A stretch of DNA of 64,000 nt from an uncultured Planctomycetales bacterium. Lineage in GTDB: Bacteria > Omnitrophota > Gorgyraeia > Gygaellales > Profunditerraquicolaceae. The notes beneath the pieces were generated by a model. It did not search any database. It had not been told where the DNA came from and saw nothing but the letters and a program-made list of their open reading frames with translations. Shown one piece after another: positions 5,506 to 56,666 of the stretch (positions are counted from its first letter, which is position 1; each line of letters starts with the position of its first letter). Made by a program: the position numbers and the translations under genes. The stretch is taken from the NCBI GenBank assembly GCA_964545575.1, contig CAZJFL010000009.1, positions 19,574-83,573 on the forward strand. Reading direction: 5' to 3'.

Positions 5506-5527
5506 ATGAAAGGGGGTGAAACAAAAT

Positions 5528-5767: not shown

Positions 5768-5853
5768 CCGTCTCTATCAAAAAAGTGAGCCCCTGTAAAA
5801 TGGCTTTATCTTTATTTTGCAGGGGCTAACTTTTCCGCTATAATTTTTACCCT

Positions 5854-11285: not shown

Positions 11286-11297
11286 GGATCAAATTTG

Positions 11298-11460
11298 CTC
11301 CGTTGCCCGGAATTATAACGTAAGGCAACGGAGTTAATTCGCGGACGCCCGCCGCAAAGATTGGCGGGCTACAACTTACATTCGCTTGCCGCAGAAGCGG
11401 CACACCGGCTGTTCCAATACAGCCGGGTGTTTCGCTCTGTAAGTTGTCCGCTCATTAAAA
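11298..11460 (+). promoter_or_regulatory. Structured 5' leader, copy B, of the same multi-stem element as 5408-5505. Stem 1 pairs ctccgttgcc with ggcaacggag. It is followed by TTAATTCGCG, a stem pairing ACAACTTAC with GTAAGTTGT around variable hairpins, then CCGCTCATTAAAA and GGAGG.
   Basis: Both stems carry compensatory changes relative to copy A. It sits directly upstream of exbB. Confidence 0.55.
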
Positions 11461-11470
11461 GGAGGATTAC

Positions 11471-15884: not shown

Positions 15885-17218
15885 GCAAGGCAAAGCCAAA
15901 AACGGCATCTGAGTTGATGAAATTAGTAAAAGAAAAAAAGGTTAGATACATCAGGCTTTGGTTTACCGATGTGCTGGGTTTCTTAAAAGGTTTTACCATC
16001 ACCATTAATGAACTGCCTCGTGCCTTAGAAGACGGGATGGGGTTTGACGGCTCATCAATCGAGGGTTTTGCGCGGATCGAGGAATCGGATATGATCGCCA
16101 GGCCCGATATCAGGACCTTTGCAATACTGCCCTGGGAGTCAAAGGATGAGCCTGTGGCGAGGATGTTCTGCGATATCTACAAGCCCGACGGCAGGCCCTT
16201 TGAAGCCGATCCCAGATATGTCTTGAAGAAAAATTTAGAGCGTGCCAAGAAACTAGGCTTTATTTATTACGTGGGGCCTGAGCTGGAATACTTTTATTTC
16301 AACAACCCCAAGAATACAATTATTCTGGATAAAGGCGGATATTTTGATCTTACGCCGCTAGATGTAGCGCAGAGCGTCAGGAACGAAACCGTTTCCAGCC
16401 TCGAAGACTTAGGGATTATCGTCGAATACAGCCATCATGAAGTCGCCTCCAGCCAGCATGAAATCGACTTAAGATACAGCGATGCGCTCTCCATGGCAGA
16501 TAACGTCATGACCTATAGATTAGTAGCCAAAGAAATTGCCCAGGCAAAGGGCCTGCACGCCAGCTTTATGCCCAAACCGGTCTTTGGGATTAACGGTTCG
16601 GGAATGCATACGCATCAGTCTTTGTTTAAAGGTTCAGCTAATGCCTTCTTCGAGAAAGGCGGACAATACCATCTTTCCAAGGTTGCGCAGCAGTTTATCG
16701 CCGGGCTGCTGAAGCACGCGGTGGAGATAACTTCGGTGACCAATCAGTGGGTCAACTCTTACAAGCGTCTTGTCCCCGGATATGAAGCGCCGGTTTATAT
16801 CTGCTGGGCGCAGATGAACCGTTCGGCGCTGATCCGCGTGCCGATGTATAAGCCGGGAAAAGAAAAAGCGACCCGTATTGAATACAGGTCTCCGGATCCG
16901 GCCTGTAACCCTTATTTGGCATTTTCGGTGATGTTAGCTGCCGGCCTGGAAGGCATTAAGAATAATTATAAGCTGACTGAGCCAGCCAATGACAATATCT
17001 ATCATATGGGCGAAGAGCAGCGGGACAGGGTCGGGATAAAATCGCTTCCCGAAGACCTGCTGGAGGCGATTAAAATTACCGAGAAAAGCAAATTAGTGCG
17101 GGAGTGCCTGGGGGATAAGGTGTTTGAGTATTTCATCCGTAATAAGAAGGTGGAATGGGATGAATATAAGGCGCAGGTCACCCAGTACGAAATAGACAGG
17201 TACCTGCCGATACTCTAG
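15881..17218 (+). CDS. glnA: Glutamine synthetase family protein (type I-like), copy 1
   Basis: 445 aa with a GS beta-grasp N-terminal domain and a catalytic domain (GPELEYF, NGSGMHTHQS, RVP). Confidence 0.8.
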   Translation: MSKAKPKTASELMKLVKEKKVRYIRLWFTDVLGFLKGFTITINELPRALEDGMGFDGSSIEGFARIEESDMIARPDIRTFAILPWESKDEPVARMFCDIYKPDGRPFEADPRYVLKKNLERAKKLGFIYYVGPELEYFYFNNPKNTIILDKGGYFDLTPLDVAQSVRNETVSSLEDLGIIVEYSHHEVASSQHEIDLRYSDALSMADNVMTYRLVAKEIAQAKGLHASFMPKPVFGINGSGMHTHQSLFKGSANAFFEKGGQYHLSKVAQQFIAGLLKHAVEITSVTNQWVNSYKRLVPGYEAPVYICWAQMNRSALIRVPMYKPGKEKATRIEYRSPDPACNPYLAFSVMLAAGLEGIKNNYKLTEPANDNIYHMGEEQRDRVGIKSLPEDLLEAIKITEKSKLVRECLGDKVFEYFIRNKKVEWDEYKAQVTQYEIDRYLPIL

Positions 17219-17229
17219 GGTTAAAGGCT

Positions 17230-17955
17230 GTGGCAAAAAAAGGCAAATATCAGATTTACATAAAACAGATAGAGGCCCTTTCCAAGATAGCAAACCTCAT
17301 CACTTCCGGACTGTACTTAGAAGAGCTGTTGCGCCTTATCGTGCAGGTCACCTCCGAAATTATGAACTCCAAAATTTCTTCTTTGATGCTGGTTGACCCG
17401 GACAAGAAAGAGCTGGTGATTAAGGCTACACAGTCTATTTCGGAGGCCTATAATAAGAAACCTAACCTTAAATTAGGGGAAGGGGTATCCGGTATAGTCG
17501 CCAAAGAAAATAAACCGATCTGCGTTCTGGATGTCAAAGAAGACAGCCGTTACTTAAACAGGGATGTAGCTAAAAAAGAGGGGTTATGTTCTTTAGCCAG
17601 CGTTCCTTTGGCGGTAAAGGGGAGGGTGATCGGGGTGCTTAATTGTTATACTTCTGCTAAGCATAAATTTAGTAAAAATGAACTGGATATCCTGACCGCT
17701 TTAGCTAACCAGGCGGCATTGGCTATAGAGAACGCGGAGTTAGATTTAAGGGTGCGCACTGCCGAAGAGGCCCTGACTACCCGTAAGCTTATCGACCGCG
17801 CAAAAGATGTCCTTTCGCGCGAGGCGAATATTCTGCCCTCTGAGGCCTACCGGTTGATTCAAAAACAAAGCATGGATAGCCGCAAATCCATGCGCGAGAT
17901 TGCCGAAGCGATAATTTTAACCAAAGATATCAAAGATAAGCAAAGAGAAAAATAA
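17230..17955 (+). CDS. GAF-ANTAR RNA-binding antiterminator regulator, copy 1
   Basis: It has an N-terminal GAF domain and the C-terminal ANTAR motif EALTTRKLIDRAKDVLSRE...SMREIAEAII. It lies directly downstream of glnA copy 1. Confidence 0.75.
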   Translation: MAKKGKYQIYIKQIEALSKIANLITSGLYLEELLRLIVQVTSEIMNSKISSLMLVDPDKKELVIKATQSISEAYNKKPNLKLGEGVSGIVAKENKPICVLDVKEDSRYLNRDVAKKEGLCSLASVPLAVKGRVIGVLNCYTSAKHKFSKNELDILTALANQAALAIENAELDLRVRTAEEALTTRKLIDRAKDVLSREANILPSEAYRLIQKQSMDSRKSMREIAEAIILTKDIKDKQREK

Positions 17956-22287: not shown

Positions 22288-22427
22288 CACCCAATCTTAT
22301 AGGATAGATTGGTGTGCACTTACTGTGTAACACCCAAACATATAGGATTGTTTGGTATACACTAACTGTGTTAACGCCCGAACATATATGATTGTTCGGC
22401 GTACGCTTACTGCGTAAGGAGCTAAAA
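22286..22427 (+). repeat. Three tandem copies of a ~45-nt structured unit, with the unit boundaries falling at 22286-22328, 22329-22372 and 22373-22420. Each unit reads AAC-R-CCC, then a 7-bp stem, a TATNNGAT loop, the stem complement, and a small hairpin with a TTACT-type pentaloop. The last unit ends in AAGGAG, which serves as the ribosome-binding site for the STAS gene.
   Basis: The stem sequences differ between units but stay complementary: ccaatct/agattgg, ccaaaca/tgtttgg, ccgaaca/tgttcgg. Confidence 0.7.
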
Positions 22428-28818: not shown

Positions 28819-28957
28819 AACACCCGGCCTTATACCCACCCCACCATATCGGAGTGATGGGTACGCCGCCTTCTGCGGCGGGATAGGCCGGTGTGCGCTT
28901 GCTGTCTAACACCCAATCTTATCGGATATATTGGTGTGCGCTTGCTGCGCAAGGAGG
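28819..28957 (+). repeat. Two copies of the same structured unit family. The first unit (28819-28907) carries a nested insertion inside its TATNNGAT loop, and that insertion itself resembles a mini-unit. The second unit (28908-28957) ends in AAGGAGG before the ATG at 28964.
   Basis: Seen in sequence. The outer stem cacccggcc/ggccggtgtg encloses ttata[insert]ggata. Confidence 0.65.
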
Positions 28958-29302: not shown

Positions 29303-29405
29303 TCATAAAAAGGGGCCTGCCGATAAAAATTATTGACAAAAGATTTTTTTATATTATCATCTATTTAATATAAATAGGGTATAGAAAAGATAGGAGTGGA
29401 AGACA

Positions 29406-29448
29406 AAGACGTCTGGAATTCTTGCAGGACGTCTTTTCTTTTTTAAAG
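29406..29448 (+). terminator. Terminator-like hairpin (aagacgtc, 14-nt loop, gacgtctt) plus a U-run, abutting the ATG at 29449 with no Shine-Dalgarno; possible attenuator
   Basis: Seen in sequence. Confidence 0.4.
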
Positions 29449-30288
29449 ATGAAAATATTGCATAAAGAAATTCTAGGTCAAACGCAGGATACCAGGCTTA
29501 CTAAAATAGAGGTGAGCGCGCCTGATATTGCTGCTTCTGCCTCACCCGGCCAGTTTGCGGTGTTGATGGTCAGTGAAGAAGGGGAAAGAATACCTCTGAC
29601 TATCGTGGATTGCGATAAAAATAAAGGCATAATTACTTTTATCTTTCAGGAGGCAGGCCTGACCACTAAGCTTTTAGGCAAATTAAATCAAGGGGATTCG
29701 CTGTATGCTTTGGCCGGCCCCTTAGGCCATCCTACTGAGATTAAAAATTACGGGCAAGTTATTTTAGTAGGCGGGGGGGTGGGTATTGCCGAATTATACC
29801 CCGTAGCTAAAGCTTTAAAGGGGGCAGGTAATCAGGTAGTGACCATATTGGGGGCGCGGACTAAAGAATTATTGATCCTGGAAAAAGAATTAAAGAGCGT
29901 GTCTAGTGAATTACACATTACTACCGATGACGGCTCTTACGGCAGAAAGGGTTTTACTACTGATGTCTTAAAAGAATTACTAAACAACGAACAACGAACT
30001 ATGAACTATGAACTAGTGTATGCGGTAGGTCCCATTCCGATGATGCGTAAGTGCGCTGCAGCGACCCAAGAATTCAAGGTAAAAACTTTAGTTTCTTTAA
30101 ATGCCCTGATGGTGGATGCCACGGGTATGTGCGGCTGCTGCCGGGTAGAAGTAGGCGGGAAAACCAAATTTAGCTGCGTGGACGGCCCTGAATTCGACGG
30201 CCATTTAGTGGATTGGGACGGTCTGACCAAAAGAAATGCCGTATATCTGGAACAAGAAAAACATATCTGTAACTTGATGCCTAAATGA
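29449..30288 (+). CDS. FAD/NAD(P)-binding oxidoreductase with a C-terminal 2Fe-2S site (NfnA / sulfide dehydrogenase beta / PyrK-like electron-transfer subunit)
   Basis: It has an FNR-like FAD/NAD fold and the C-terminal CGCCRVEVGGKTKFSCVDGPEF cysteine cluster. It is paired with the GltD-family gene that follows. Confidence 0.65.
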   Translation: MKILHKEILGQTQDTRLTKIEVSAPDIAASASPGQFAVLMVSEEGERIPLTIVDCDKNKGIITFIFQEAGLTTKLLGKLNQGDSLYALAGPLGHPTEIKNYGQVILVGGGVGIAELYPVAKALKGAGNQVVTILGARTKELLILEKELKSVSSELHITTDDGSYGRKGFTTDVLKELLNNEQRTMNYELVYAVGPIPMMRKCAAATQEFKVKTLVSLNALMVDATGMCGCCRVEVGGKTKFSCVDGPEFDGHLVDWDGLTKRNAVYLEQEKHICNLMPK

Positions 30289-31703
30289 AAAAAGAACCGC
30301 TGGAAGCAAAAGAAAGAGACGTCTCGCAAAGGGTAAACAGCTTTGACGAGGTAGTCTTTGGTTATAGTGAGGAAGAAGCGTTGAGCGAAGCTAGCCGCTG
30401 CCTGCAGTGCAAAAACCCGGTCTGTATTTTGGGCTGTCCGGTCGGCATAGATATTAAGAAATTTATTTACCAGGTTTCCCAGAAGGATTACAAAGGTGCT
30501 TATTTTACTATCCGCCAAAAGAATGATTTTCCTTCGATCTGCGGCAGAGTTTGTCCGGCAGAGTACCAGTGCCGAAAGACTTGCATATTAACTAAAAAAG
30601 GTTCGCCCTTTGCCGCAAAAGAGGCGATAAATATCCATTTTTTGGAAAGGTTCGTAGGCGATTACGGAATGAGGAATAATCTATCAGTCCCCCCGGGAAA
30701 ATGCGCGGGCGCCGCAAAAATAAAAGTCGCGGTGGTGGGTTCCGGACCTGCCGGGATATGCTGCGCCGGAGAATTAGCGCGTAAAGGGATTAAGGTGGTC
30801 GTTTTTGAAAGTTTACATAAATTAGGCGGGGTTTTACGTTACGGGATTCCCCCTTTCAGGCTGCCGCGGGATATTCTGGATTATGAAATAGATTATTTAA
30901 AGAAGCTGGGGGTAGAATTCGTACCTAACTGTATTATAGGTAAGGCCAAGACCCTAGACGGGCTATTGAAAGAGGGTTTTGCTGCGGTATTCTTGGGTTT
31001 AGGCGCGGGTACGCCTTCATTTCTGGGAATACCGGGAGAAAATCTCTGTAATGTTTATTCTGCCAACGAGTTTTTAACCCGGGTAAACCTGATGTCTGCC
31101 TATGAGTTCCCCAAATTTCATACTCCGGTCAACATTGGAAAACATGCCATTGTGATCGGGGGGGGGAATACGGCTATGGATGCAGCCAGAGTAGCTTTGC
31201 GCCTGCAAAAGATGAACGGACTTGCCCCGGACACCACCATTCTTTACCGGCGTTCGGAAGTAGAGATGCCGGCGAGAAGACTGGAGATAGAGCATGCTAA
31301 AGAAGAGGGGATTAAATTTAAACTTTTGGTTAAACCGGAAGAGTTTTATGCAGACAAAAACGGCTTTGTGCAGAAAATAAGATGTCTGGAGTGCCGGCTT
31401 GGCGAACCGGACAGTTCAGGCAGAAGAAAACCTATTCCTGTGCCGGGGAGTGATTTTAAAATGCCTTGCGATTTAGCGATTATTGCTGTAGGATTACAGG
31501 CAAATCAGATTTTGACTAAAGCCACCCCGGAAATCAAAGTAGATGAATGGGCAGATGTGGTAGTGGATCCGGAAACTATGGAGACTTCAGTAAAAAAAGT
31601 TTTTGCAGGAGGTGATATTGTCGGAGGAGAAGGAACGGTAATTGAGGCTATGGGGATGGCCAAAAAAGCCGCAGAGGCTATATTAAAATCGTGCTCGGCG
31701 TGA
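30285..31703 (+). CDS. GltD-family NAD(P)H-dependent FAD/Fe-S oxidoreductase (NfnB / archaeal-type glutamate synthase small-chain-like)
   Basis: 472 aa with an N-terminal 4Fe-4S cysteine pattern (CLQCKNPVCILGCPV) and two GxGxxG Rossmann motifs (VVGSGPAG, VIGGGNTAMD). Confidence 0.7.
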   Translation: MKKEPLEAKERDVSQRVNSFDEVVFGYSEEEALSEASRCLQCKNPVCILGCPVGIDIKKFIYQVSQKDYKGAYFTIRQKNDFPSICGRVCPAEYQCRKTCILTKKGSPFAAKEAINIHFLERFVGDYGMRNNLSVPPGKCAGAAKIKVAVVGSGPAGICCAGELARKGIKVVVFESLHKLGGVLRYGIPPFRLPRDILDYEIDYLKKLGVEFVPNCIIGKAKTLDGLLKEGFAAVFLGLGAGTPSFLGIPGENLCNVYSANEFLTRVNLMSAYEFPKFHTPVNIGKHAIVIGGGNTAMDAARVALRLQKMNGLAPDTTILYRRSEVEMPARRLEIEHAKEEGIKFKLLVKPEEFYADKNGFVQKIRCLECRLGEPDSSGRRKPIPVPGSDFKMPCDLAIIAVGLQANQILTKATPEIKVDEWADVVVDPETMETSVKKVFAGGDIVGGEGTVIEAMGMAKKAAEAILKSCSA

Positions 31704-31732
31704 GAGCGCAAGAAATAAAACTAAGTTAGTTA

Positions 31733-31826
31733 AGCGCCCGAACATATATGATTGTTCGGCGTGCGCTTACTGCGCTAACGCCCGAACATATCTGATTGTT
31801 CGGCGTGCGCTTACTGCGCAAGGAGG
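31733..31826 (+). repeat. Two tandem copies of the structured unit (31733-31776, 31777-31826). The second ends in AAGGAGG before the gdhA ATG at 31832.
   Basis: They are near-identical to the third unit at 22373-22420 (gcccgaaca, loop, tgttcggc, then gcgcttactgcgc). Confidence 0.7.
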
Positions 31827-31831
31827 ATAGG

Positions 31832-33169
31832 ATGTCAAAAAAGGTGGAAGAGTTTATGAGCAAGGTAGCGGCAAGAAATCCGGGAGAGCCGGAATTTCAT
31901 CAGGCAGTGCGCGAAGTTGTAGAGTCAGTAATGCCTTTTATTGAAGAGAACCCGAAATACCAAAAAGCCAAAATATTAGAAAGAATAGTGGAGCCGGAGC
32001 GCGTATTGATGTTTCGCGTTCCCTGGTTTGACGACAAAGGAGAGATTCAGGTAAACCGCGGCTACCGTATAGAAATGAGTAGCGCCATCGGCCCCTACAA
32101 AGGCGGTTTGCGTTTCCATCCTACCGTGACTTTAAGTATTTTAAAATTTTTGGCTTTTGAGCAGGTGTTTAAGAATAGCCTTACCACCCTGCCCATGGGC
32201 GGCGGCAAGGGCGGTTCGGATTTTGACCCCAAAGGTAAATCCGATAATGAGGTGATGCGTTTCTGCCAGAGTTTTATGACCGAATTGCAAAGGCATATCG
32301 GCCCGGATACGGATGTGCCTGCCGGAGATATCGGCGTAGGCGGACGCGAAATCGGATTTTTGTTCGGACAATATAAGAGGCTGCGTAATGAGTTTAGCGG
32401 CGTGCTTACCGGCAAAGGCCTGAACTGGGGCGGAAGCTTGATCCGTCCGGAAGCCACTGGTTACGGCTGTGTTTATTTTGTCCAGGAGATGCTTAAAACA
32501 AAAGGCGAGTCGTTAAAAGGAAAAGTCTGCGCTGTTTCCGGTTCCGGCAATGTCGCCCAGTACACCGTAGAAAAGCTTCTGGATTTAGGGGCAAAGGTGG
32601 TGACTTTGTCAGACTCCAACGGTTACATTTACGATAAAGGCGGCATTGATAAGAAGGAACTGACTTGCGTGATGGATCTGAAAAATATCAAGCGCGGCCG
32701 GATCAAGGAATGTGCTAAGGAATTCAACTGCGAATATTTCGAGAATAAGAATCCCTGGAGCGTAAAATGTGACATAGCTTTCCCTAGCGCTACGCAAAAC
32801 GAGATAGACGAAAACGATGCTAAGATGCTGGTGAAAAACGGCTGTATTGCGGTAGGGGAAGGCGCGAACATGCCTACTACGCCTGAAGGTGTAGAGGTTT
32901 TTCAAAAAGCAAAGATTCTCTACGCTCCCGGTAAGGCTTCTAACGCTGGAGGCGTGGCTACTTCGGGCTTGGAGATGTCTCAGAATAGCCAGAGGCTTTC
33001 CTGGACGCGCGAAGAGGTAGATAGAAGGCTGCATGACATCATGATCGCCATACATGAGCAGTGCGTCAAATACGGCAAGGAGGGTAATTATATCGATTAT
33101 GTCAAAGGCGCCAACATCGCCGGGTTTGTCAAGGTGGCCGATGCGATGATAGACCAGGGGTTAGTTTAG
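31832..33169 (+). CDS. gdhA: NADP-specific glutamate dehydrogenase
   Basis: It has the GDH hallmark FKNSLTTLPMGGGKGGSDFDPKGKSDNE and a GSGNVAQY Rossmann motif. The 31796 start only translates the repeat. Confidence 0.9.
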   Translation: MSKKVEEFMSKVAARNPGEPEFHQAVREVVESVMPFIEENPKYQKAKILERIVEPERVLMFRVPWFDDKGEIQVNRGYRIEMSSAIGPYKGGLRFHPTVTLSILKFLAFEQVFKNSLTTLPMGGGKGGSDFDPKGKSDNEVMRFCQSFMTELQRHIGPDTDVPAGDIGVGGREIGFLFGQYKRLRNEFSGVLTGKGLNWGGSLIRPEATGYGCVYFVQEMLKTKGESLKGKVCAVSGSGNVAQYTVEKLLDLGAKVVTLSDSNGYIYDKGGIDKKELTCVMDLKNIKRGRIKECAKEFNCEYFENKNPWSVKCDIAFPSATQNEIDENDAKMLVKNGCIAVGEGANMPTTPEGVEVFQKAKILYAPGKASNAGGVATSGLEMSQNSQRLSWTREEVDRRLHDIMIAIHEQCVKYGKEGNYIDYVKGANIAGFVKVADAMIDQGLV

Positions 33170-33182
33170 TCAAAAAATACTC

Positions 33183-33211
33183 TTGACAAATCAGCGATCG
33201 CATGTTATAGT
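33183..33211 (+). promoter_or_regulatory. Sigma70-type promoter: TTGACA, a 17-nt spacer, then TATAGT
   Basis: The -35 box is at 33183-33188 and the -10 box at 33206-33211. Confidence 0.6.
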
Positions 33212-33217
33212 TTAGTA

Positions 33218-33298
33218 GAAATATAAATTAAGGGCACAAGGTTTGTGCTAGAAAGAAAGGACAAGGGTGTTCGTGGAAACGAGCACCCTTTTTATTTT
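33218..33298 (+). ncRNA. Short promoter-proximal transcript or leader of about 80 nt. It has a hairpin gcaca...tgtgc, a second hairpin ggac[AAGGGT]gttc whose 3' arm overlaps the 5' arm of an intrinsic terminator (gggtgttcg-tggaaa-cgagcaccc plus UUUUU), matching the geometry of an ANTAR target.
   Basis: Seen in sequence. The second hairpin and terminator resemble the element at 38672-38706. Confidence 0.5.
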
Positions 33299-33395
33299 AC
33301 CTTTCTTGATTTTCTGCGTCAGAAAAAATAAGGAGTGTTTCCTTAATATTTTAGCAATGTCCGCTAAGTAACAAGGGCATTCCTTTTAAAACGAT

Positions 33396-33440
33396 GGCGT
33401 TTTATGCCGATATTTTACTGCGGCGTAAAACGCCTTTTTT
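33396..33440 (+). terminator. Second terminator-like hairpin (ggcgtttta...taaaacgcc plus UUUUUU) in the leader of the GAF-ANTAR gene
   Basis: Seen in sequence. Confidence 0.45.
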
Positions 33441-33446
33441 GTTTAT

Positions 33447-34187
33447 ATGCGGCATAAACCTATGCAAAACACGCTTTTTGAAGAGCAGGTAAAGGCTTTA
33501 GTTAAGATCAGCAAGGCCATAGCTTCAGACCTCTATCTGGAGGATATTTTGCGCCTGATAGTTACCGTTACCGCGGAGGTGATGGGTTCGAATATTTGTT
33601 CGTTGATGCTGATTGACGAAAAGAAAAAAGAGCTGGTAATCAGGGCTACCCAGAGTGTCAGCGAAGAATATAATCAAAAGATACCTTTAAAGATAGGTGA
33701 AGGCATTGCCGGAAAGGTTGTGGCGCAGAATAAGCCGATTACGGTTAAGGATGTGACCAAAGAGAAAGAATATAAATATCAGGATATTGCCAGGAAAGAA
33801 GGGTTATGTTCGCTTCTTTGCGTACCTCTGGCGGTAAAAGGAAAACCTATAGGAGTATTGAATTGTTATACTTCTAAACCCCATGATTTTAGCGAAACCG
33901 AAATTGAGATATTGATGTCTATAGCCAATCAGGCGGCAGTGGCGATTGAGAATACGGAGTTGCTGGTAAAAAGTAAAATCATCCAGGAAGAGCTGGAGAC
34001 GCGCAAAAGAATAGAGCGCGCCAAGGGAATCATCATGCATGGCGAAGGGTTGACCGAAGAAGAGGCATATTTAAAGATCCGCAAATACAGTATGGATAAC
34101 CGCAAGACTATGCGCGAAGTTGCCGAAGCGATTATCCTGTCTGATGAGATGAAGAAATTAACAGGTAAAGCGGCCCCGCGCTCATAG
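33447..34187 (+). CDS. GAF-ANTAR RNA-binding antiterminator regulator, copy 2 (alternative ATG at 33462)
   Basis: It has a GAF domain and the C-terminal ANTAR motif EELETRKRIERAKGIIMHGEGLTEEEAYLKIRKYSMDNRKTMREVAEAIIL. It is a paralog of the 17230 gene. Confidence 0.75.
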   Translation: MRHKPMQNTLFEEQVKALVKISKAIASDLYLEDILRLIVTVTAEVMGSNICSLMLIDEKKKELVIRATQSVSEEYNQKIPLKIGEGIAGKVVAQNKPITVKDVTKEKEYKYQDIARKEGLCSLLCVPLAVKGKPIGVLNCYTSKPHDFSETEIEILMSIANQAAVAIENTELLVKSKIIQEELETRKRIERAKGIIMHGEGLTEEEAYLKIRKYSMDNRKTMREVAEAIILSDEMKKLTGKAAPRS

Positions 34188-34258
34188 GGCCAAGGTACCT
34201 TAATCCCAATGTCAGGGAAAATTAAGAACATGAGCAAACAGAAAAAGGAGGAAGTGCG

Positions 34259-35911
34259 ATGAATTTGCAAAGGCCGAACGCAAATGACGCGACTGGGACG
34301 TTTAACCGTTCCAAGAACGTGGTACCGGGTTCTGGTATCTGTTCTCGGTGTGTGGATGGGTGTAAAGGTAACTGCGAAGTCTTCAGGGCGACTTTCCGGA
34401 GCCGCGAGGTTATTTATCCGGGCCCTTTCGGAGAAGTAACTGCTGGAGCGGATAAGGATTATCCCGTGGATTACTCTCACCTAAATATCCAGGGCTATGC
34501 CTTGGGTGCTAAGGGTCTGCCGCAAGGCACAGAAGGTAATCCTGATACGACCAAATTCCCCGATGTGAATACCGAGGCCGAGTACGGCTGGAACTCAAAG
34601 GTAAAAATGAAAGTTCCTATTTTTACCGGAGCTTTGGGCTCAACGGAAATCGCCAGAAAAAACTGGGAGCATTTTGCCGTGGGTGCAGCAATTTCCGGCA
34701 TTACCCTGGTGTGTGGCGAAAATGTCTGCGGTATTGACCCCGGGCTGGAATTGGATAGTAACGGCAAGATCAAGAGTTCGCCCGACATGGACAGGCGTAT
34801 CGAGACTTATAAAAGGTTCCACAACGGCTGGGGAGAGATTTTGGTCCAGATGAACGTGGAAGATACGCGCTTGGGTGTTGCCGAATACGTCAGGAAGAAG
34901 CATAAACTTGACGCTATAGAGTTGAAATGGGGGCAGGGCGCTAAATGTATCGGCGGTGAGATAAAGGTAAAGAGCTTAGAAAGAGCTTTGGAATTACAGA
35001 GGCGCGGTTATATCGTTACTCCTGATCCCTCTCAAGAGGCGAACCAGAGAGCCTTTAAAGACGGCGCAATAAAAGAGTTTGAGCGCCATTCCCGCTTAGG
35101 GTTTGTTTCAGAAGAGGCATTTTTGGCAGAAGTCAAGCGCTTAAGAGGCTTAGGGTTCAAGCGTATTACCTTAAAGACCGGCGCTTATGCCATGCGCGAG
35201 CTGGCCATGGCGATAAAATATTGTTCCCTTGCCGGTATCGATCTTTTGACTATAGACGGTGCACCCGGCGGGACAGGAATGAGTCCTTGGAGGATGATGG
35301 AAGAATGGGGTATCCCTACCTTTTATCTGGAGGCGCTGGCCTATGAGTTCTGCCAGGAATTAGCCAAGAAAGGGATGCGTATTCCGGATATAGCCATAGC
35401 CGGAGGTTTTTCCAGCGAGGACCACGTTTTTAAAGCCTTAGCCATGGGCGCGCCATACGTCAAGGCAGTCTGTATGGGAAGATCCCTGATGATACCCGGC
35501 ATGGTGGGAAAGAATATTGCCAATTGGCTAAAAGAAGATAATCTTCCGCCTACCGTATCAGCTTACGGCAAGACAGAAAAAGAAATTTTTGTCTGTTACG
35601 AAGAGCTGCTTGAGCGATACGGCAAGGAGATGAAAGATATACCCTTGGGTGCGGTGGGGATATATTCTTTTGTGCAAAAGTTAAGGGTTGGTCTGCAGCA
35701 GCTGATGGCCGGTAGCAGGAACTTTAGGCTGAGCGCTATCTCCCGCAATGACCTGATGGCCTTGACGGAAGATGCGGCCAAGGTTTCAGGCATTCCTTAT
35801 GTAATGGATGCCTATCGCAAAGAAGCAGAGGCAATACTTAACGGTAAGGAAACAGTAAGGTTAGAAAACAATTTTAATCACCGTAGGGCCAAGGTAGCGG
35901 TGGGGAGGTAA
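34259..35911 (+). CDS. Stand-alone glutamate synthase FMN-binding domain protein (archaeal-type GltB domain 2) with an N-terminal Cys cluster
   Basis: 550 aa with the N-terminal CSRCVDGCKGNC motif and a TIM-barrel FMN domain with the GAPGGTG and IAGGF motifs typical of GltB-like proteins. Confidence 0.6.
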   Translation: MNLQRPNANDATGTFNRSKNVVPGSGICSRCVDGCKGNCEVFRATFRSREVIYPGPFGEVTAGADKDYPVDYSHLNIQGYALGAKGLPQGTEGNPDTTKFPDVNTEAEYGWNSKVKMKVPIFTGALGSTEIARKNWEHFAVGAAISGITLVCGENVCGIDPGLELDSNGKIKSSPDMDRRIETYKRFHNGWGEILVQMNVEDTRLGVAEYVRKKHKLDAIELKWGQGAKCIGGEIKVKSLERALELQRRGYIVTPDPSQEANQRAFKDGAIKEFERHSRLGFVSEEAFLAEVKRLRGLGFKRITLKTGAYAMRELAMAIKYCSLAGIDLLTIDGAPGGTGMSPWRMMEEWGIPTFYLEALAYEFCQELAKKGMRIPDIAIAGGFSSEDHVFKALAMGAPYVKAVCMGRSLMIPGMVGKNIANWLKEDNLPPTVSAYGKTEKEIFVCYEELLERYGKEMKDIPLGAVGIYSFVQKLRVGLQQLMAGSRNFRLSAISRNDLMALTEDAAKVSGIPYVMDAYRKEAEAILNGKETVRLENNFNHRRAKVAVGR

Positions 35912-35913
35912 CG

Positions 35914-36087
35914 GTGGAAAAAAAGGGGTTATGTATTACCTGTGTTCAGTCTGCAACCTGCATCTTTCCTAAGGAGCCGCCGGTATGGCAGTGCGAAGAA
36001 TTTTCTAACGGCAATCACGTGCCTGTGAGAGGCAGGCAGGCAAAGGTTAGGCAGGTTGTATACGAGCAAGTGACCGAAAGCGAATAA
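35914..36087 (+). CDS. Candidate small ORF (57 aa, GTG start) with four Cys (CxxC-x5-C-x10-C). It lies 3 nt after the FMN-domain gene and is preceded by GGAGG.
   Basis: It is not in the ORF track because it is under 60 aa. The frame is open from GTG 35914 to TAA 36085-36087. The Shine-Dalgarno spacing is good. Confidence 0.3.
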   Translation: MEKKGLCITCVQSATCIFPKEPPVWQCEEFSNGNHVPVRGRQAKVRQVVYEQVTESE

Positions 36088-36144
36088 AAATAAATAGCAG
36101 ATCAGCAAGCAAAGGACTAAGGCGTCCGATATCCAAAGCTGGAT

Positions 36145-36164
36145 AAAGGGCGCCTTTGTTTTTT
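36145..36164 (+). terminator. Intrinsic terminator (aaagg-gcgc-ccttt hairpin plus GTTTTTT)
   Basis: Seen in sequence, downstream of the FMN-domain operon. Confidence 0.5.
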
Positions 36165-36258
36165 AATGAGGGCACAATTTACGGAGCATAAGCGACGTAA
36201 ATTGTATGCCCGAATTAATCCCGCACTTACGCATAAGTGCGGGATAAGAGGTAGGCAG

Positions 36259-36786
36259 ATGACATTCGAGGTATTATTAAAAAGAATATCACCGAAGTTA
36301 AAGGGTATAGCCTATAAATTAAACGGCCGTTATTCTTTTTTTAATGACCAGGATTTATTTCAGGAAGCCTTACTGCACCTCTGGCAGGAGTTTGGGGCAG
36401 GAAAATTAGAGGATAAGACCGATAGCTATATCCTGCAGGGCTGCTATTTTCATCTTAAAAACTATATCCGTAAGACAAATACAAGAAGCAAGGTAGTGAG
36501 CCTCCAGGCGTTTATCGATAATGAAGAGGACTTAAAATTAGAAGAGACGCTATTATTGCAGGACTGTGATCCCCAAGATTATTTCGATTCCTTAAACAGT
36601 AAATTATTGGTAGAAACTATCCACAATAACGGTTTTACGGAAAGAGAAAAGAATATACTTACGCTATATGCGGAAGGACTTACTACCAGAGAGATCGGTT
36701 CCAGGCTTGGGGTTTCGCATGTCAGAGTGGTTAAGCTAATGAGCCGCATCAGAGAGAAGTCAAAAATTTATCTGGATAATTTTTAA
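36259..36786 (+). CDS. Sigma-70 family RNA polymerase sigma factor (ECF-like, regions 2 and 4)
   Basis: Region 2-like FQEALLHLWQ and a C-terminal helix-turn-helix LTTREIGSRLGVSHVRVVKLMSRIR. The start is chosen at ATG 36259 because the 36166 start runs through terminator and hairpin sequence. Confidence 0.5.
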   Translation: MTFEVLLKRISPKLKGIAYKLNGRYSFFNDQDLFQEALLHLWQEFGAGKLEDKTDSYILQGCYFHLKNYIRKTNTRSKVVSLQAFIDNEEDLKLEETLLLQDCDPQDYFDSLNSKLLVETIHNNGFTEREKNILTLYAEGLTTREIGSRLGVSHVRVVKLMSRIREKSKIYLDNF

Positions 36787-36813
36787 ACAGGCGTTACCAA
36801 AACAATCGGTTTT

Positions 36814-36945
36814 CCACTTGTAGTGGTATAAGGCACATTGAAGTGTAGCCGGATAAAGGCGTCTTTTGCCCAGCAAGGGCACACCAAACAATCCGATATG
36901 TTTGGGTGTTTCCAGCGTTGGGTTAGCGGACGCTTTTTTGTTTTT
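36814..36945 (+). promoter_or_regulatory. amtB leader. It has hairpins ccac-ttgta-gtgg and gcac[ATTGAA]gtgt (a hexaloop with A at position 1 and G at position 4), a long hairpin acaccaaaca-atccgata-tgtttgggtgt that resembles the repeat-unit stem, and then a terminator (agcgt...acgct plus UUUUUGUUUUU) just before the ribosome-binding site and ATG.
   Basis: Seen in sequence. The hexaloop hairpin is nearly identical to the first hairpin of the glnA copy 2 leader (gcac[ATTGTA]gtgc). Confidence 0.45.
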
Positions 36946-36952
36946 AGGAGGG

Positions 36953-38188
36953 ATGAAAATGATGAATAGCGGTGATACTGCTTGGGTCTTGGTTTCATCG
37001 GCTTTAGTCCTGCTGATGACTCCTGGCCTGGCATTCTTTTACGGAGGGATGGTTAGGAAGAAAAACGTTTTGAGTGTTTTAATGCAGTGTTTCATTATTA
37101 TGTGCGTTTTAAGTATCCAGTGGGTACTCTTTGGCTACAGCCTTTCGTTTCATCCGGGAAACGGATTCTGGGGCGGTTTTGGATGGTTGGGTTTAAACGG
37201 TGTGGGCTTTGAGCCTTACGCAGATTACGCGGCTACTATTCCGCATCAGGCATTTATGATCTTTCAGGCGATGTTTGCGATTATCACACCCGCATTGATT
37301 ATCGGCGCATTTGCTGAGAGGATGAAGTTTTCCGCATTTTTGTTATTTACGGTGCTTTGGGCGACGTTTGTATACGATCCTTTATGTCACTGGGTCTGGG
37401 GCACGGGAGGATTTTTAAAGAATTTAGGCGCGCTTGATTTTGCCGGTGGAACAGTGGTACATATTAATGCCGGGATTGCTGCTTTGGTCACGGCGATAGT
37501 CCTAGGCAAGAGATCAAACTTAAACGGAAATGTGCCTACTCCGCACAACATGCCTTTGGTGGTCTTAGGTACAGGATTATTATGGTTTGGTTGGTTTGGT
37601 TTTAATGCCGGAAGCGCTCTTGCTGCCAATGGGTTAGCGGTAAACGCATTTGTCGTAACCAATACCGCAGCTGCCGCGGCAGGATTAAGTTGGGCTTTGA
37701 TTGAGTGGTGGCGTAACGGCAAGCCTACGATTTTCGGCTTATGTTCCGGAGCTGTCGCAGGCCTCGTTGCAATTACGCCTGCTGCCGGATTTGTAGGTGT
37801 TATACCGGCGATAATCATCGGCCTATTAGTCAGCGTTTTCTGCTTTATTGCGGTAACGCTGATTAAGCCGAAATTCGGTTATGATGATTCGCTGGATGCC
37901 TTTGGAGTGCACTGCATAGGCGGTATCTGGGGAGCTTTGGCTACCGGGCTGTTTGCTTCTAAGGTAATAAATTCCGCCGGCAGCGATGGGCTATTTTTCG
38001 GCAACCCGAAGCAGTTTTTAGTGCAGCTGGCAGCCGTAGCAGTGACGATTATCTACACGGGAGTCGTTACATTGATTATCTATAAACTCGTAGACGTGTT
38101 CGTGGGTATACGGGTTGATGAAAAATCAGAGGCAATGGGGTTAGATTTGACGCAGCATCATGAAAGGGCGTATACGGTATTGGAGTAA
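36953..38188 (+). CDS. amtB: Ammonium transporter
   Basis: It has the Amt signature near the N-terminus (DTAWVLVSSALVLLMTPGLAFFYGG), 11 transmembrane segments and DFAGGTVVHI. GGAGGG lies 8 nt upstream of ATG 36953. Confidence 0.9.
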   Translation: MKMMNSGDTAWVLVSSALVLLMTPGLAFFYGGMVRKKNVLSVLMQCFIIMCVLSIQWVLFGYSLSFHPGNGFWGGFGWLGLNGVGFEPYADYAATIPHQAFMIFQAMFAIITPALIIGAFAERMKFSAFLLFTVLWATFVYDPLCHWVWGTGGFLKNLGALDFAGGTVVHINAGIAALVTAIVLGKRSNLNGNVPTPHNMPLVVLGTGLLWFGWFGFNAGSALAANGLAVNAFVVTNTAAAAAGLSWALIEWWRNGKPTIFGLCSGAVAGLVAITPAAGFVGVIPAIIIGLLVSVFCFIAVTLIKPKFGYDDSLDAFGVHCIGGIWGALATGLFASKVINSAGSDGLFFGNPKQFLVQLAAVAVTIIYTGVVTLIIYKLVDVFVGIRVDEKSEAMGLDLTQHHERAYTVLE

Positions 38189-38206
38189 ATATCCAAGGAG
38201 GCTTAG

Positions 38207-38548
38207 ATGAGACTGGTTATCGCAATAATACAGCCGCACAGACTAGAGGCGGTGAAAGAAGAATTGTATAAGGCAGAGGTTAATCTTTTGACCGTAAGTG
38301 AAGTCTTAGGCCACGGCCGGCAAAAAGGCATTACCGAAGTCTACCGCGGAGCAAAAGAAACAGGGAATCTTCTGCGCAAGGTCAGGCTTGAAATTGCGGT
38401 CAATGATAATTTCCTTGAGCCGACTATAAGAGCGATTGTTAAAGGTGCCAAGACCGGTGAGACCGGAGACGGAAAGATTTTTGTGCTGGATCTTAAGGAG
38501 TGTATCCGTATCCGCACCGAAGAGCGCGGCGGCGTAGCCATAGGTTAA
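38207..38548 (+). CDS. glnK: PII nitrogen regulatory protein (GlnK, amtB-linked)
   Basis: 113 aa with a T-loop containing the [12 protein letters not shown] region. The overall PII signature is present. It directly follows amtB. Confidence 0.9.
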
Positions 38549-38633
38549 GGAGGGAAGGGAAAGCCTATAAAAAGGTTACCAAAATAGGCTTTATTTTACT
38601 TGTATATAGAGAAGTAGGAAGCTTAAAATTTAG

Positions 38634-38706
38634 GCACATTGTAGTGCGAAAATAAAATATTTGCCTTAAGGGAACATGGGCGTTCTTCGAAAAGAACGCC
38701 CTTTTT
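38634..38706 (+). promoter_or_regulatory. glnA copy 2 leader, an ANTAR-type terminator/antiterminator switch. Hairpin 1 is gcac[ATTGTA]gtgc (38634-38647). Hairpin 2 is gaac[ATGGGC]gttc (38672-38685), and its loop plus 3' arm overlap the 5' arm of the intrinsic terminator gggcgttcttcg-aaaa-gaacgccc plus CUUUUUG (38678-38706).
   Basis: Both hexaloops have A at position 1 and G at position 4. Forming hairpin 2 and forming the terminator are mutually exclusive. Two GAF-ANTAR proteins are encoded in the window. Confidence 0.55.
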
Positions 38707-38725
38707 GTTTAAAAAGGAGGAAGTA

Positions 38726-40234
38726 ATGCCTAAGAGAGAGATAAAAAAGACCAAGGGAGTAAAGACCAAAAATCCTTTGGTTAACGGTTCTTTTGACGAA
38801 AAAGCGGCCCGGGATGTGATGAAACTGGTCAAAGAAAGCAATATCCAAATTATAGATTTGAAATTCAATGACCTTCCCGGCCTCTGGCAGCATTTTTCCA
38901 TACCTGCCTCAGAATTGAAAGAGATGGACGATATCACCCGTTCTATCTGGGTGGATGGCATCGGTTTTGACGGTTCCTCCATCCGCGGTTTCCAGAAGAT
39001 ACAGGAATCGGACATGATTTTGATTCCCGACCCCTCCACGGCGATTATAGATCCGGTGTGCGAGGTTCCTACTCTAAGCATCATCTGCGATATTTATGAC
39101 CCGCTTACCCGTAAAGCCTACACCCGCGACCCGCGCTATATAGCAAAAAAAGCCGAAAAATACCTTAAAGATTCGGGGATCGCCGATACGGTTTATTTCG
39201 GCCCAGAGGCGGAGTTTTTTATTTTCAATGATGTGCGTTTTGACCAGACTGAAAATTCCGGGTATTACTTTATTGATTCAGACGAGGGTGACTGGAATAC
39301 GGGAAGGGAAGAAAATCCAAATTTAGGTTATAAGGTGCGCTATAAAGAAGGTTATTTCCCGGTTCCTCCGCACGATTCTCTGCAGGATTTAAGAAGCAGG
39401 ATAATTCTGAAGATGAAAGAGGCGGGCATTAATGTGGAAGTGCACCACCATGAAGTGGCTACGGCCGGCCAGTGCGAAATTGATATGAAATTCGACAAAC
39501 TTACCAAGATGGCCGATAACCTCTTGCTTTACAAATACATAATCAAAAATATGGCTAAGAAGAATAACATGGTAGCTACTTTTATGCCTAAGCCTCTCTT
39601 TGCGGATAACGGCTCGGGTATGCACTGCCACCAGAGCCTGTGGAAAGGCGGGAGGAACCTGTTCTACGATAAAAACGGCTATGCGCTCTTAAGCCAGGCG
39701 GCAAAATACTATATCGGAGGCTTGTTAAAGCATGCGCGCAGCTTGATGGCTTTTTGCGCTCCCACTACCAATTCCTATAAGAGATTAGTTCCCGGTTATG
39801 AGGCGCCGGTAAACCTGGTATATTCTGCGCGCAACCGTTCAGCAGCGGTAAGGGTTCCCATGTATTCGGACAATCCCAAATCTAAAAGAATAGAATTCCG
39901 CCCGCCTGACCCGGCCTGTAACGGGTATTTGGCATTCAGCGCCATGCTTTTGGCCGGACTTGACGGCATACAGAATAAAATCGATCCCGGTAAACCCATG
40001 GATAAAGATCTATTCGAATTAAGCGAAGAAGAATTAAAAACCATACCTACCGTTCCCGGGTCGCTTTATACCGCGCTCAACGCCCTTGAAGCAGACCATG
40101 AATATCTTTTAAAAGGCGGCGTATTTACTCAGGATGTTTTGGATATCTGGCTGGAGTATAAGCGTAAAAAAGAGATAGACGCAGTGAGGATGCGCCCGCA
40201 TCCCTATGAGTTTTATCTTTATTTTGATATTTAA
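38726..40234 (+). CDS. glnA: Glutamine synthetase type I, copy 2
   Basis: It has a GS N-terminal beta-grasp domain and a catalytic domain ([30 protein letters not shown]). AAAAAGGAGG lies 6 nt before ATG 38726. The 38705 start is a TTG inside the terminator U-tract. Confidence 0.85.
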
Positions 40235-40239: not shown

Positions 40240-40321
40240 GGGACTGTCCCCTTAGGTCTACGGGAAGGCACCCAAACCTATCTGATGGTTTGGTGCCCCG
40301 CTTTCTGCGGGGACTGTCCCT
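40240..40321 (+). promoter_or_regulatory. A single copy of the structured repeat unit (ggcacccaaacc-tatctgat-ggtttggtgcc, then ccccgc-tttct-gcgggg, 40267-40312), flanked by two copies of the perfect palindrome GGGACTGTCCC (40240-40251, 40309-40320)
   Basis: Seen in sequence, about 50 nt upstream of the Fis-like/gltB operon start. Confidence 0.5.
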
Positions 40322-40367
40322 AAAATTTTATCCGGCGGTGCTTAATTTTTAGGCAAGAGGGATAATC

Positions 40368-46556: not shown

Positions 46557-46631
46557 GCGAGAGACGGTTTTACATTGACATCATCCTAAAATATGTTAAA
46601 CTTTTTAGTAGTCCACAGTAGAACTACTGTA

Positions 46632-46672
46632 AACAAAACAATGGCGTTTAGAGGCCGAATTGTCGGCGCTAA
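46632..46672 (+). terminator. Intrinsic terminator or attenuator (ggcgtttag...ctaaacgc around a nested hairpin gccga-attg-tcggc, then UUUUUUU). It lies between a promoter-like element and pyrG.
   Basis: Seen in sequence. The T-run ends about 20 nt before the pyrG ATG. Confidence 0.55.
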
Positions 46673-48292
<1,620 letters not shown>

Positions 48293-56515: not shown

Positions 56516-56666
56516 CGTTAATATTTGGATTTGATCCTTCCTGTGTCCGCATTAATGAAGTAGGCATCGCGTAATCTTCACAAAACGCCATCCTTCGGAT
56601 AGCAAGTAAACATCTTTACAAAGCCGTTTAACTATAATATAATATTGCCTAATAATTAGGCAGAAG

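Follow-up and report, generated by a model that had tools for sequence, protein, structure and literature searches.

A candidate ANTAR-type attenuator in the glnA leader of an Omnitrophota bacterium and related elements in its nitrogen-assimilation gene cluster

Introduction

The RNA motif recognized by ANTAR-domain antiterminators was defined by Ramesh et al. 2012 (PMC3369931) and comprises two hairpins, here called P1 and P2, joined by a linker. In the EutV system a linker of 5-12 nt is tolerated, whereas linkers of 3 or 14 nt, or the addition of 20 nt, impair antitermination (PMC3369931; PMC8934654), and in the EutV-RNA structure the guanine at loop position 4 (G4) is a base-specific contact (Walshe et al. 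2022, PMC8934654). Here we analyse a 64-kb stretch of DNA (64,000 nt, hereafter the window) from an uncultured bacterium of the candidate phylum Omnitrophota, which carries a dense cluster of nitrogen-assimilation genes; its subject is a candidate element of this kind in the leader of glnA copy 2, a glutamine synthetase (GS) gene, together with similar elements at neighbouring operons and two GAF-ANTAR proteins encoded among them.

Regulons of this type have been predicted for nitrogen genes elsewhere. A covariance search combined with a terminator filter placed ANTAR elements before genes for PII, ammonium transporters, GS and glutamate synthase (Ramesh et al. 2012, PMC3369931), with 13 elements in Desulfotomaculum acetoxidans and others in D. 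reducens and at amtB of Clostridium thermocellum (Fig. 9 and Table S2 of that study). In Alkaliphilus metalliredigens the GS Amet_3386 was paired with the ANTAR protein Amet_3385 (PMC3369931). These nitrogen regulons, in Firmicutes and Deltaproteobacteria, are predictions from sequence.

The glnA leader described here resembles the EutV-controlled eut leaders of Enterococcus faecalis in its two hexaloop hairpins with A at position 1 (A1) and G4, in the overlap between P2 and a terminator and in termination as the predicted default. With the nitrogen regulons predicted in 2012 it shares the same motif and terminator before genes for GS, an ammonium transporter with PII and glutamate synthase, the presence of multiple attenuators in one genome and an ANTAR gene beside a GS gene. 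We consider it likely, from sequence comparison, that a set of leaders in the window, that of glnA among them, are ANTAR-type transcription attenuators.

Results

Mutually exclusive structures in the glnA leader

The switch sits in 38549-38725, between the end of the PII gene (38548) and the glnA ATG (38726); its parts are listed in Table 1. Both hexaloops, ATTGTA in P1 and ATGGGC in P2, carry A1 and G4 (G4 of P1 is position 38641), as an earlier note on this DNA had read directly from the sequence at 38634-38706. The 5' arm of the terminator runs from loop position 3 of P2 and takes in its entire 3' arm, so that formation of one structure excludes the other. Evaluated separately, P2 has a folding energy of -2.6 kcal/mol versus -16.7 kcal/mol for the terminator, a difference large enough that the unassisted leader RNA is expected to terminate, and the minimum free energy structure predicted by RNAfold consists of P1 plus the terminator (-26.3 kcal/mol, z = -3.07). 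The shared nucleotides and the predicted fold thus agree with the mutual exclusivity that the earlier note had claimed. It had also described a strong terminator lying directly on the glnA ribosome-binding site (RBS). The terminator is indeed among the two best terminator-like sites in 28-46 kb, whereas its position needs correction: the stem ends 12 nt upstream of AAAGGAGG, the terminator lies ~20 nt upstream of the ATG and its U-run stops 15 nt short of that codon.

Conservation across related loci

The element was followed through a related set of 80 loci (1.12 Mb), in each of which the 230 nt upstream of glnA were read; 53 of these carry close glnA orthologues (>=77% identity). A scan with strict settings, which demanded ANNGNN hexaloops on stems >=3 bp, a linker of 3-30 nt and terminator overlap, returned the glnA site alone and was too strict for variants, so covariance models were used instead. 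The first model (R1) was built from 32 orthologous glnA leaders, the window copy included, with the P1 and P2 pairs as its only structure; the second (R2) was built from 52 matches derived from R1 and was searched over the window without filters. The search of related metagenome-assembled genome (MAG) loci that had been suggested previously gave, with R1, 59 matches at E<1 across the 1.12 Mb, every one of them on the gene strand. The window glnA site scores 52.9-54.6 bits with the two models (E ~4e-12), and this score, together with the rank of its terminator in 28-46 kb, shows that the element is not a chance occurrence.

The dual-hairpin element is present in 33/53 close orthologues, and the same leader was seen in about 30 species; loss of the hairpins from orthologous leaders, which the earlier note had named as the observation that would speak against them, was thus not what we found. 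The leader consensus reads TTAGGCAC-ANNGTA-GTGC, a variable linker and GAAC-ANRGGC-GTTC, followed by terminators of widely varying loop and length; written as a hairpin, the orthologous P1 is gcac[(A/G)NNG(T/A)N]gtg(c/t) with G4 invariant. In the alignment of 52 matches, most hairpins have hexaloops and 4-bp stems. Among the matches with cleanly aligned loops, G4 is invariant in both; at position 1 most matches have A and nearly all others G, and positions 2-3 are free. The stems are paired in 99.3% of cells, with compensatory changes at 4/8 pairs (for example GCAC/GTGC to ACAC/GTGT, and GAAC/GTTC to GGAC/GTCC or AAAC/GTTT), values that exceed those of all 500 column shuffles and all slid registers.

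The terminator overlap provides stronger and independent evidence, as the model itself contains no terminator. All 52 matches are followed by a terminator hairpin that begins in the P2 loop, with the first base of its 5' arm no more than 3 nt from G4, and that ends directly at a U-run; its stem reaches at least 9 bp in 51 of them. The same procedure applied to random positions in the same loci found such hairpins at 3.5% of positions with a 7-bp minimum for the stem and at 0.9% with a 9-bp minimum. Furthermore, P2 loop positions 5 and 6 covary with the terminator 3' arm (GGC/GCC, GGT/ACC, GAC/GTC). Matches outside glnA leaders precede genes for amtB, PII-like, glutamate dehydrogenase (GDH), glutamate-synthase-domain and GAF-ANTAR proteins, as well as a Fis-type helix-turn-helix (HTH)/gltB operon, carA, pyrG and the gene of an extracytoplasmic function (ECF) sigma factor. 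The published ANTAR-target architecture that the earlier note had recognized is accordingly upheld by the A1/G4 hexaloops, the exclusive terminator, the nearby ANTAR gene and conservation in dozens of genomes.

The other 20 orthologues have a different leader, many with TTTAACAT-type repeats and no terminator. This second leader type was observed in other Omnitrophota lineages (L016, L034, L036, L037, L040, L048, L051 and L058, in the L numbering of our loci), where two direct repeats of (A/T)TTTAACAT lie ~20 nt apart near the RBS, with neither terminator nor dual hairpin. Several such loci still encode a GAF-ANTAR protein downstream of another GS-like gene. Co-occurrence of GAF-ANTAR genes with the glnA attenuator was dropped as an uninformative test, because lineages with a different glnA leader also encode GAF-ANTAR beside a GS gene.

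GAF-ANTAR proteins

Both proteins described previously as GAF-ANTAR (Table 1) pass Pfam for GAF and ANTAR (the cutoff for ANTAR, PF03861, is 27.3 bits), with 56% identity between the two. In GAF-ANTAR2 the ANTAR part gives a gap-free alignment with Rv1626, EutV and NasR (PDB matches; NasR 4akk, E ~1e-7). The G4-contacting residues of EutV, R142, K149, E160 and Y164, and its plug residue M172 (Walshe et al. 2022, PMC8934654) are all kept in GAF-ANTAR2, as R186, K193, E204, Y208 and M216, which is a further likeness to EutV. K143 and R175 are also identical, while K147 is replaced by R, N173 by D and R177 by T, the last position being T in Rv1626 too.

The GAF domain of GAF-ANTAR2 finds its best matches in the N-terminal GAFs of PtsP (EI-Ntr) and NifA (NCBIfam PtsP 1.7e-20, NifA 1.6e-17; PDB 3trc/3ci6, E ~5e-16). 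The outputs of those proteins differ, being a phosphotransferase and a sigma54 AAA+ activator, respectively. Both GAFs are reported to respond to glutamine and/or 2-oxoglutarate, and the resemblance may be taken as a lead to the ligand, not a test of it. GAF-ANTAR genes occur in 16 related loci (>=57% identity, within 10-kb flanks), and the same flanks hold one more copy, truncated where its contig ends, and three distantly related genes. The family comprises >7,800 relatives at E<=1e-10, and the named ones among the top matches are mostly labelled Omnitrophica; the ANTAR literature that we consulted names no characterized GAF-ANTAR member.

Related elements in the window

Searched over the window, R1 and R2 gave matches on the sense strand at intergenic leaders (Table 1). 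Homologous elements at amtB and upstream of the second GAF-ANTAR gene, as claimed in the earlier note, were therefore recovered by a model trained only on glnA leaders and their relatives, and both turned out to be more complete than described. At amtB the first hairpin and the terminator stand, P2 had been missed and the terminator is split by an insert: its long-range stem encloses 63 nt of structured RNA and is formed in the RNAfold prediction (-45 kcal/mol, z = -4.06), and a similar long-loop terminator is found in the amtB leader of L072. At 33183-33298 the promoter, the second hairpin and the terminator had been recognized, and the site also has a P1, with a 7-nt loop that recurs in the orthologous leader of L020. 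The promoter there (33183-33211) matches the sigma70 type at 11/12 positions.

A hairpin at 36880-36908, inserted in the amtB terminator loop, was tried as a homologous regulatory hairpin and rejected. It belongs to a repeat family whose other copies lie, in the opposite orientation, also upstream of unrelated genes (STAS/Mla and DUF4870), so the insert is not considered part of the amtB switch.

Further modules were found before GAF-ANTAR2 (a second attenuator in tandem with the first, an arrangement also seen at the orthologue in L017), the ECF-type sigma gene, the operon of a FAD/NAD-binding subunit and a GltD-like protein, and pyrG. Each has counterparts elsewhere. GGAC[TAAGGC]GTCC with a terminator recurs before the orthologous sigma gene in L017, L018, L026 and L027, and a related module with a 7-nt loop in L042; the orthologue of the 29401 module in L038 reads ggac[AAAGAC]gtcc with a terminator, a compensatory change in the outer pair; and P2 with the terminator of pyrG is kept in L007, L011, L014 and probably L028. 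In a terminator scan of the window, 7/7 intergenic plus-strand terminators between 29.4 and 46.7 kb overlap a P2-type hexaloop with G4. Of the 50 remaining terminator-like sites, mostly within coding sequence, only 3 show an overlap of this kind by chance.

Table 1. Coordinates of the switches and genes, by position in the window
Feature	Position	Strand	Details
GS copy 1 (glnA copy 1)	15881-17218	+	GAF-ANTAR1 directly downstream
GAF-ANTAR1	17230-17955	+	ANTAR Pfam 61.9 bits, E 4.9e-17
Leader of FAD/NAD-binding-subunit/GltD-like operon	29333-29444	+	GDH downstream; promoter TTGACA-16-TATCAT; R2 match 29368-29417, 8.9 bits (weak), E 2.1
P2-type hairpin of this leader	29401-29414	+	agac[AAAGAC]gtct
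Terminator of this leader	29405-29436	+	with U-run
FAD/NAD-binding subunit, GltD-like protein and GDH	29449-33169		
First attenuator of GAF-ANTAR2 operon	33183-33298	+	promoter TTGACA-17-TATAGT, P1, P2, terminator, U-run; R2 match 33230-33275, 25.6 bits, E 8e-5
P1, first attenuator	33234-33248		gcac[AAGGTTT]gtgc, 7-nt loop
P2, first attenuator	33259-33272		ggac[AAGGGT]gttc
Terminator, first attenuator	33263-33290	+	12 bp, with U-run
Second attenuator of GAF-ANTAR2 leader	33387-33440	+	R2 match 33365-33405, 7.4 bits (weak), E 5.3
P2-type hairpin, second attenuator	33387-33404	+	taaaac[GATGGC]gtttta
Terminator, second attenuator	33396-33434	+	14 bp, U-run
GAF-ANTAR2	33447-34187	+	GAF_2 E 1e-26; ANTAR 74.9 bits, E 4.2e-21; then glutamate-synthase-domain protein and 57-aa open reading frame
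Module 5' of ECF-type sigma gene	36114-36164	+	R2 match 36047-36130, 13.1 bits, E 0.16
P2-type hairpin of this module	36114-36127	+	ggac[TAAGGC]gtcc
Terminator of this module	36119-36156	+	U-run
ECF-type sigma-70 family factor	36259-36786	+	175 aa; TIGR02937 64 bits versus cutoff 42.9, residues 3-168; amtB-glnB operon lies 3'
amtB-glnB leader	36793-36945	+	promoter-like motif 36793-36821, P1, P2, terminator, U-run to 36945; R2 match 36829-36866, 19.4 bits, E 0.0035
amtB P1	36833-36846	+	gcac[ATTGAA]gtgt
amtB P2	36851-36864	+	ggat[AAAGGC]gtct
amtB terminator, long-range stem	36855-36864 with 36928-36937	+	encloses 63-nt structured insert
glnB (PII gene)	38207-38548		
Promoter-like motif, glnA leader	38575-38609	+	GTTACC-N15-TTACTTGT, then ATATA
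glnA P1 (recruitment hairpin)	38634-38647	+	gcac[ATTGTA]gtgc, 4-bp stem, hexaloop; R2 match at this leader 52.9 bits, E 4e-12
glnA linker P1-P2	38648-38671	+	24 nt, A/U-rich; 1-31 nt in orthologues
glnA P2 (antiterminator)	38672-38685	+	gaac[ATGGGC]gttc, 4-bp stem, hexaloop; G4 = 38679
glnA intrinsic terminator	38678-38701	+	GGGCGTTCTT-cgaa-AAGAACGCCC; 10-bp stem, 38678-38687 with 38692-38701
glnA U-run	38702-38710	+	TTTTTgTTT, directly after terminator stem
glnA RBS	38713-38720	+	AAAGGAGG; U-run ends ~3 nt upstream
glnA copy 2 (GS)	38726-40234	+	502 aa; gene behind the glnA-leader switch
Small Fis/NtrC-type HTH protein (HTH_8)	40368		3' of GS copy 2; then gltB and gltD
pyrG leader	46575-46684	+	promoter TTGACA-16-TAAACT; R2 match 46596-46652, 16.4 bits, E 0.022
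pyrG P1-like hairpin	46611-46624		gtcc[ACAGTA]gaac, one mismatch
pyrG P2	46636-46649		aaac[AATGGC]gttt
pyrG terminator	46643-46677	+	with U-run
pyrG (CTP synthase) and carAB			also in cluster

A promoter-like motif and an ECF-type sigma factor

Exact matches to GTTACC-N15-TTACTTGT number only two in the 64 kb, one at glnA (38575-38603) and one at amtB. The form GTTACC-N15-TTACTT(G/A)T precedes 43/52 model matches at a distance of 14-30 nt, with the 15-nt spacer invariant, and in the related loci (L006-L085) all 67 occurrences of the motif lie on the gene strand, with none on the opposite strand.

The gene immediately upstream of the amtB-glnB operon, at 36166/36259, was first read from Pfam as a LuxR-type regulator, a reading replaced by the full-length TIGR02937 match to an ECF-type sigma factor; taken alone, the match to Pfam region 2 is weak (E 0.0035). 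The motif is present in every locus that holds the sigma gene (18/18; Fisher 1e-6, uncorrected for phylogeny; 10-kb flanks). We infer that this sigma factor probably recognizes the GTTACC-N15-TTACTTGT promoters of glnA and amtB, and, with its gene lying behind ANTAR-type attenuators, the arrangement would be a feed-forward cascade. A literature search found no relevant nitrogen system that combines an ECF sigma factor with antitermination. The suggestion that the regulon works rather than, or alongside, NtrC/sigma54 is refined by these data and not confirmed: a promoter motif and an ECF-type sigma gene accompany the switches, and a small NtrC/Fis-type HTH protein is also encoded near them.

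Discussion

Proposed mechanism

Transcription of glnA would start at the conserved promoter ~25 nt upstream of P1. By default the RNA would fold into P1 and the 10-bp terminator, and polymerase would stop 20 nt before the glnA start codon. An active GAF-ANTAR dimer would bind the P1 hexaloop and then the P2 hexaloop, following the successive-binding model, with the flipped-out G4 as the base-specific contact; by holding the weak P2 it would sequester GGGCGTTC, the terminator 5' arm, keeping P2 stable until polymerase has passed the U-run and thereby allowing read-through into glnA. The same logic may apply to amtB-glnB, to the GAF-ANTAR2 operon and probably to pyrG. More tentatively, it may extend to two further leaders, those of the ECF-sigma gene and of the GltD-like/GDH operon, in which P2 with its terminator is the only part of the switch that can be recognized. 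As GAF-ANTAR2 lies behind two tandem attenuators, positive autoregulation is implied.

The GAF domain most likely senses a metabolite that reports nitrogen status, namely glutamine and/or 2-oxoglutarate. The pairing of each paralogue with its leaders, the ligand and nitrogen limitation as the inducing condition are what we infer. If the sigma factor does use the conserved motif as its promoter, ANTAR proteins would gate the sigma factor, and sigma factor and ANTAR together would gate amtB and glnA. The three P2-only modules, the ligand and the link to the sigma factor are put forward with lower confidence than the attenuators themselves.

A wider proposal, which we advance as tentative and rather doubtful as a whole, is that one Omnitrophota lineage runs its entire nitrogen-assimilation set (AmtB, PII, two GS genes, glutamate synthase (GOGAT), GDH, CarA and PyrG) without NtrBC/sigma54, by means of the GAF-ANTAR pair and a dedicated ECF-type sigma factor wired in a feed-forward manner. 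Under this proposal the PtsP(Ntr)/NifA-like GAF would be a direct sensor of glutamine or 2-oxoglutarate, two classes of P1 (hexaloop ANNGTA versus 7-nt ARKGTTT) would be recognized by the two paralogues, and the sigma factor, its own gene behind ANTAR attenuators, would drive amtB and glnA promoters whose transcripts are gated again by ANTAR.

Points against the interpretation and alternative explanations

Several points weigh against reading these leaders as ANTAR-type attenuators. The GAF-ANTAR proteins are assigned as the regulators only by proximity and the loop signature, and the element was not found in 20/53 close glnA orthologues, though some of these loci encode GAF-ANTAR. The 24-nt linker falls outside the EutV range and orthologous linkers run from 1 to 31 nt; we treat the short-linker rule as a property of the EutV system and not as family-defining, and the difference is still real. 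As the alignment is fitted to the model and the stems are near-invariant in sequence, covariation alone is modest evidence, and by that measure P1 may be conserved at the DNA level. RNAfold closes the 7-nt loop of P1 at 33234 into a 7-bp stem with a triloop. No convincing P1 was found at 29401, 33387 and 36114, sites that are therefore candidates only, and the loops at 33387 and 36114 start with G or T, not A. Finally, a single on/off direction for the whole set is doubtful, since GDH, pyrG and carA are not classic nitrogen-limitation genes.

The alternative that survives best, unlikely in our judgement, keeps genuine attenuators and has the antiterminator stabilized by another RNA-binding protein, by a small-molecule RNA fold or by translation of a leader peptide. 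It would accommodate a GAF-ANTAR assignment made by association only, several modules without P1 and linker lengths unlike those of the eut system; however, hexaloops with a purine at position 1 and an invariant G4 form a specific ANTAR signature, and two ANTAR genes lie in the cluster, one of them behind its own attenuators. A ligand-binding fold would need longer leaders with more conservation beyond P1 and P2, and no Rfam family matches: across the whole window none reached its gathering score, and in 33100-38800 a cutoff relaxed to E 5 gave nothing but noise. A leader peptide could begin at the ATG (38676) in the window P2 loop, which opens a 16-codon frame (38676-38725) ending in TAATG and overlapping the glnA start codon. 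Orthologous P2 loops (AGAGGC or ATAGGC) lack this ATG, so the peptide is not conserved; the frame is probably fortuitous, and leader-peptide attenuation from this ATG was rejected.

A second alternative, in which P1 and its flank (TTAGGCAC-N6-GTGC) are a DNA element and the terminator is controlled otherwise or not at all, appears very improbable. The element would be a sigma54 -24/-12 promoter or an operator, for example for the HTH protein at 40368. GGCAC indeed fits the sigma54 -24 element, of which the full consensus is TGGCAC-N5-TTGC, and the P1 stems are almost invariant in sequence. Moreover, conservation extends past the stem into the flank TTAGGCA, which reappears in many orthologous linkers and is a half-site of the palindrome TGCYTAA-N3-TTARGCA, which is present before other nitrogen genes. 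The GG-to-GC spacing in P1, however, is one base longer than the fixed sigma54 spacing, and in 14 matches with ACAC...GTGT, ATAC...GTAT or similar the GG/GC dinucleotides are lost while pairing is kept; on these two grounds the sigma54 promoter reading of P1 was rejected. The invariant base is the loop G4, which sigma54 leaves unexplained, the conserved promoter-like motif is a distinct sequence, placed upstream of P1 with fixed geometry, and a DNA element leaves P2 unaccounted for.

The least credible alternative takes the terminator, located between glnB (end 38548) and glnA, as the plain end of the amtB-glnB operon and the hairpins as incidental, whereas a conserved promoter-like motif lies between glnB and P1, no promoter fits downstream of the terminator because only 15 nt remain before the glnA ATG, the same module follows sigma70-type promoters at 33183, 29333 and 46575, and P1 and P2 are conserved while linker and terminator loop vary.

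Comparison with described systems

Read as an ANTAR-type attenuator, the glnA leader differs from the eut system in several respects. EutV is a phosphorylated receiver served by a kinase, whereas the sensor here is a GAF domain in a one-component protein; eut concerns ethanolamine use and the present targets nitrogen assimilation; and, besides the longer and more variable linker, position 1 of the loop is sometimes G and some modules have no evident P1. Compared with the regulons predicted in 2012, the phylum is Omnitrophota, of which none was available then, pyrG, carA and an ECF sigma gene are among the targets, and a dedicated promoter-like motif is attached.

The proposed wiring resembles the GnfL/GnfM and GnfK/GnfR cascade of Geobacter sulfurreducens (Ueki and Lovley 2010, PMC2995071), in which nitrogen genes are doubly controlled, by a master regulator of transcription initiation and, at terminators in the leaders of a subset, by an ANTAR antiterminator whose own expression depends on the cascade. 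The Gnf layers are two-component systems acting through a sigma54 enhancer-binding protein and a receiver-ANTAR protein, in contrast to the ECF-type sigma factor and GAF-ANTAR proteins that we propose. NasR-nasF of Klebsiella and AmiR-amiE of Pseudomonas offer a further parallel, as a one-component or pseudo-receiver ANTAR protein relieves the leader terminator of a nitrogen-source operon, with a homologous ANTAR domain in NasR; their sensors are NIT (nitrate) or sequestration by AmiC and each controls a single operon, unlike the GAF sensor and the multi-operon set here.

Judged from sequence, what would be new is thus the phylum, the GAF one-component architecture, linkers of 1-31 nt, the pyrG, carA and sigma-gene targets and the promoter motif. 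The known mechanism is unchanged, as ANTAR control of GS, AmtB, PII and GOGAT leaders had been predicted in 2012. The locus provides a clean comparative-genomics example of ANTAR attenuation in a candidate phylum without cultured members, and the promoter motif and ECF-type sigma factor suggest a possible wiring of nitrogen control in Omnitrophota. As target RNAs and regulator are encoded next to one another, the system lends itself to direct study with short RNAs and the purified protein, which could reveal the ligand of a GAF-ANTAR protein.

Gene neighbourhood and repeated sequences

The exact copy-2 GS protein is present on several metagenome contigs, and its closest relatives (77-91% identity) come nearly all from Candidatus Omnitrophota MAGs. 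The FAD/NAD-binding subunit gene was called from a TTG at 29422, inside the terminator 3' arm (window 29422-29451); the in-frame ATG at 29449, just past the U-run, is the more likely start. The 57-aa open reading frame (35914-36087) lies between the glutamate-synthase-domain gene and the attenuator preceding the ECF sigma gene; it has no Pfam match and is conserved, and gene calls on two independent contigs, L001 and L002, include it too.

The palindrome TGCYTAA-N3-TTARGCA (17 bp) occurs at 40339-40355 and 56646-56662, just upstream of the small HTH_8 gene with gltB and of a DUF1846 gene, respectively, and at 23 sites in related loci; in other species it follows the terminator of an attenuator and precedes the start codon of a GDH, glutamate-synthase-domain or GltD-like gene. 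It has the same TGC-N11-GCA layout as NtrC sites, its half-site is the TTAGGCA noted beside P1 and in orthologous linkers, and it could be a DNA operator or an RNA hairpin.

The repeat family with a copy inside the amtB terminator loop (36880-36908, in the opposite orientation) has six further copies in the window, at 22290-22399, 28912-28934, 31737-31803 and ~40270-40300, upstream of unrelated genes (STAS/Mla ABC, DUF4870, GDH). Its form is CRCCCRAWC, a ~9-nt loop (TATnnGAT-like) and GWTYGGYG, with a single bulged C, and a short GCRC-TTACT-GYGY hairpin often comes next; the element occurs in 1-3 tandem copies with compensatory differences between copies. The family looks like a repetitive extragenic palindrome or miniature inverted-repeat transposable element (REP/MITE-like), and related but different versions occur in other Omnitrophota loci. 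Another repeated element, with long inverted termini, roughly AATGAGCGGACAACTTACRGAG ... CGTAAGTTRT...CGAATTAAC, was found at 5341-5853, 11286-11470 and 36156-36175 and in L012, L018, L030 and L032, often directly after terminators.

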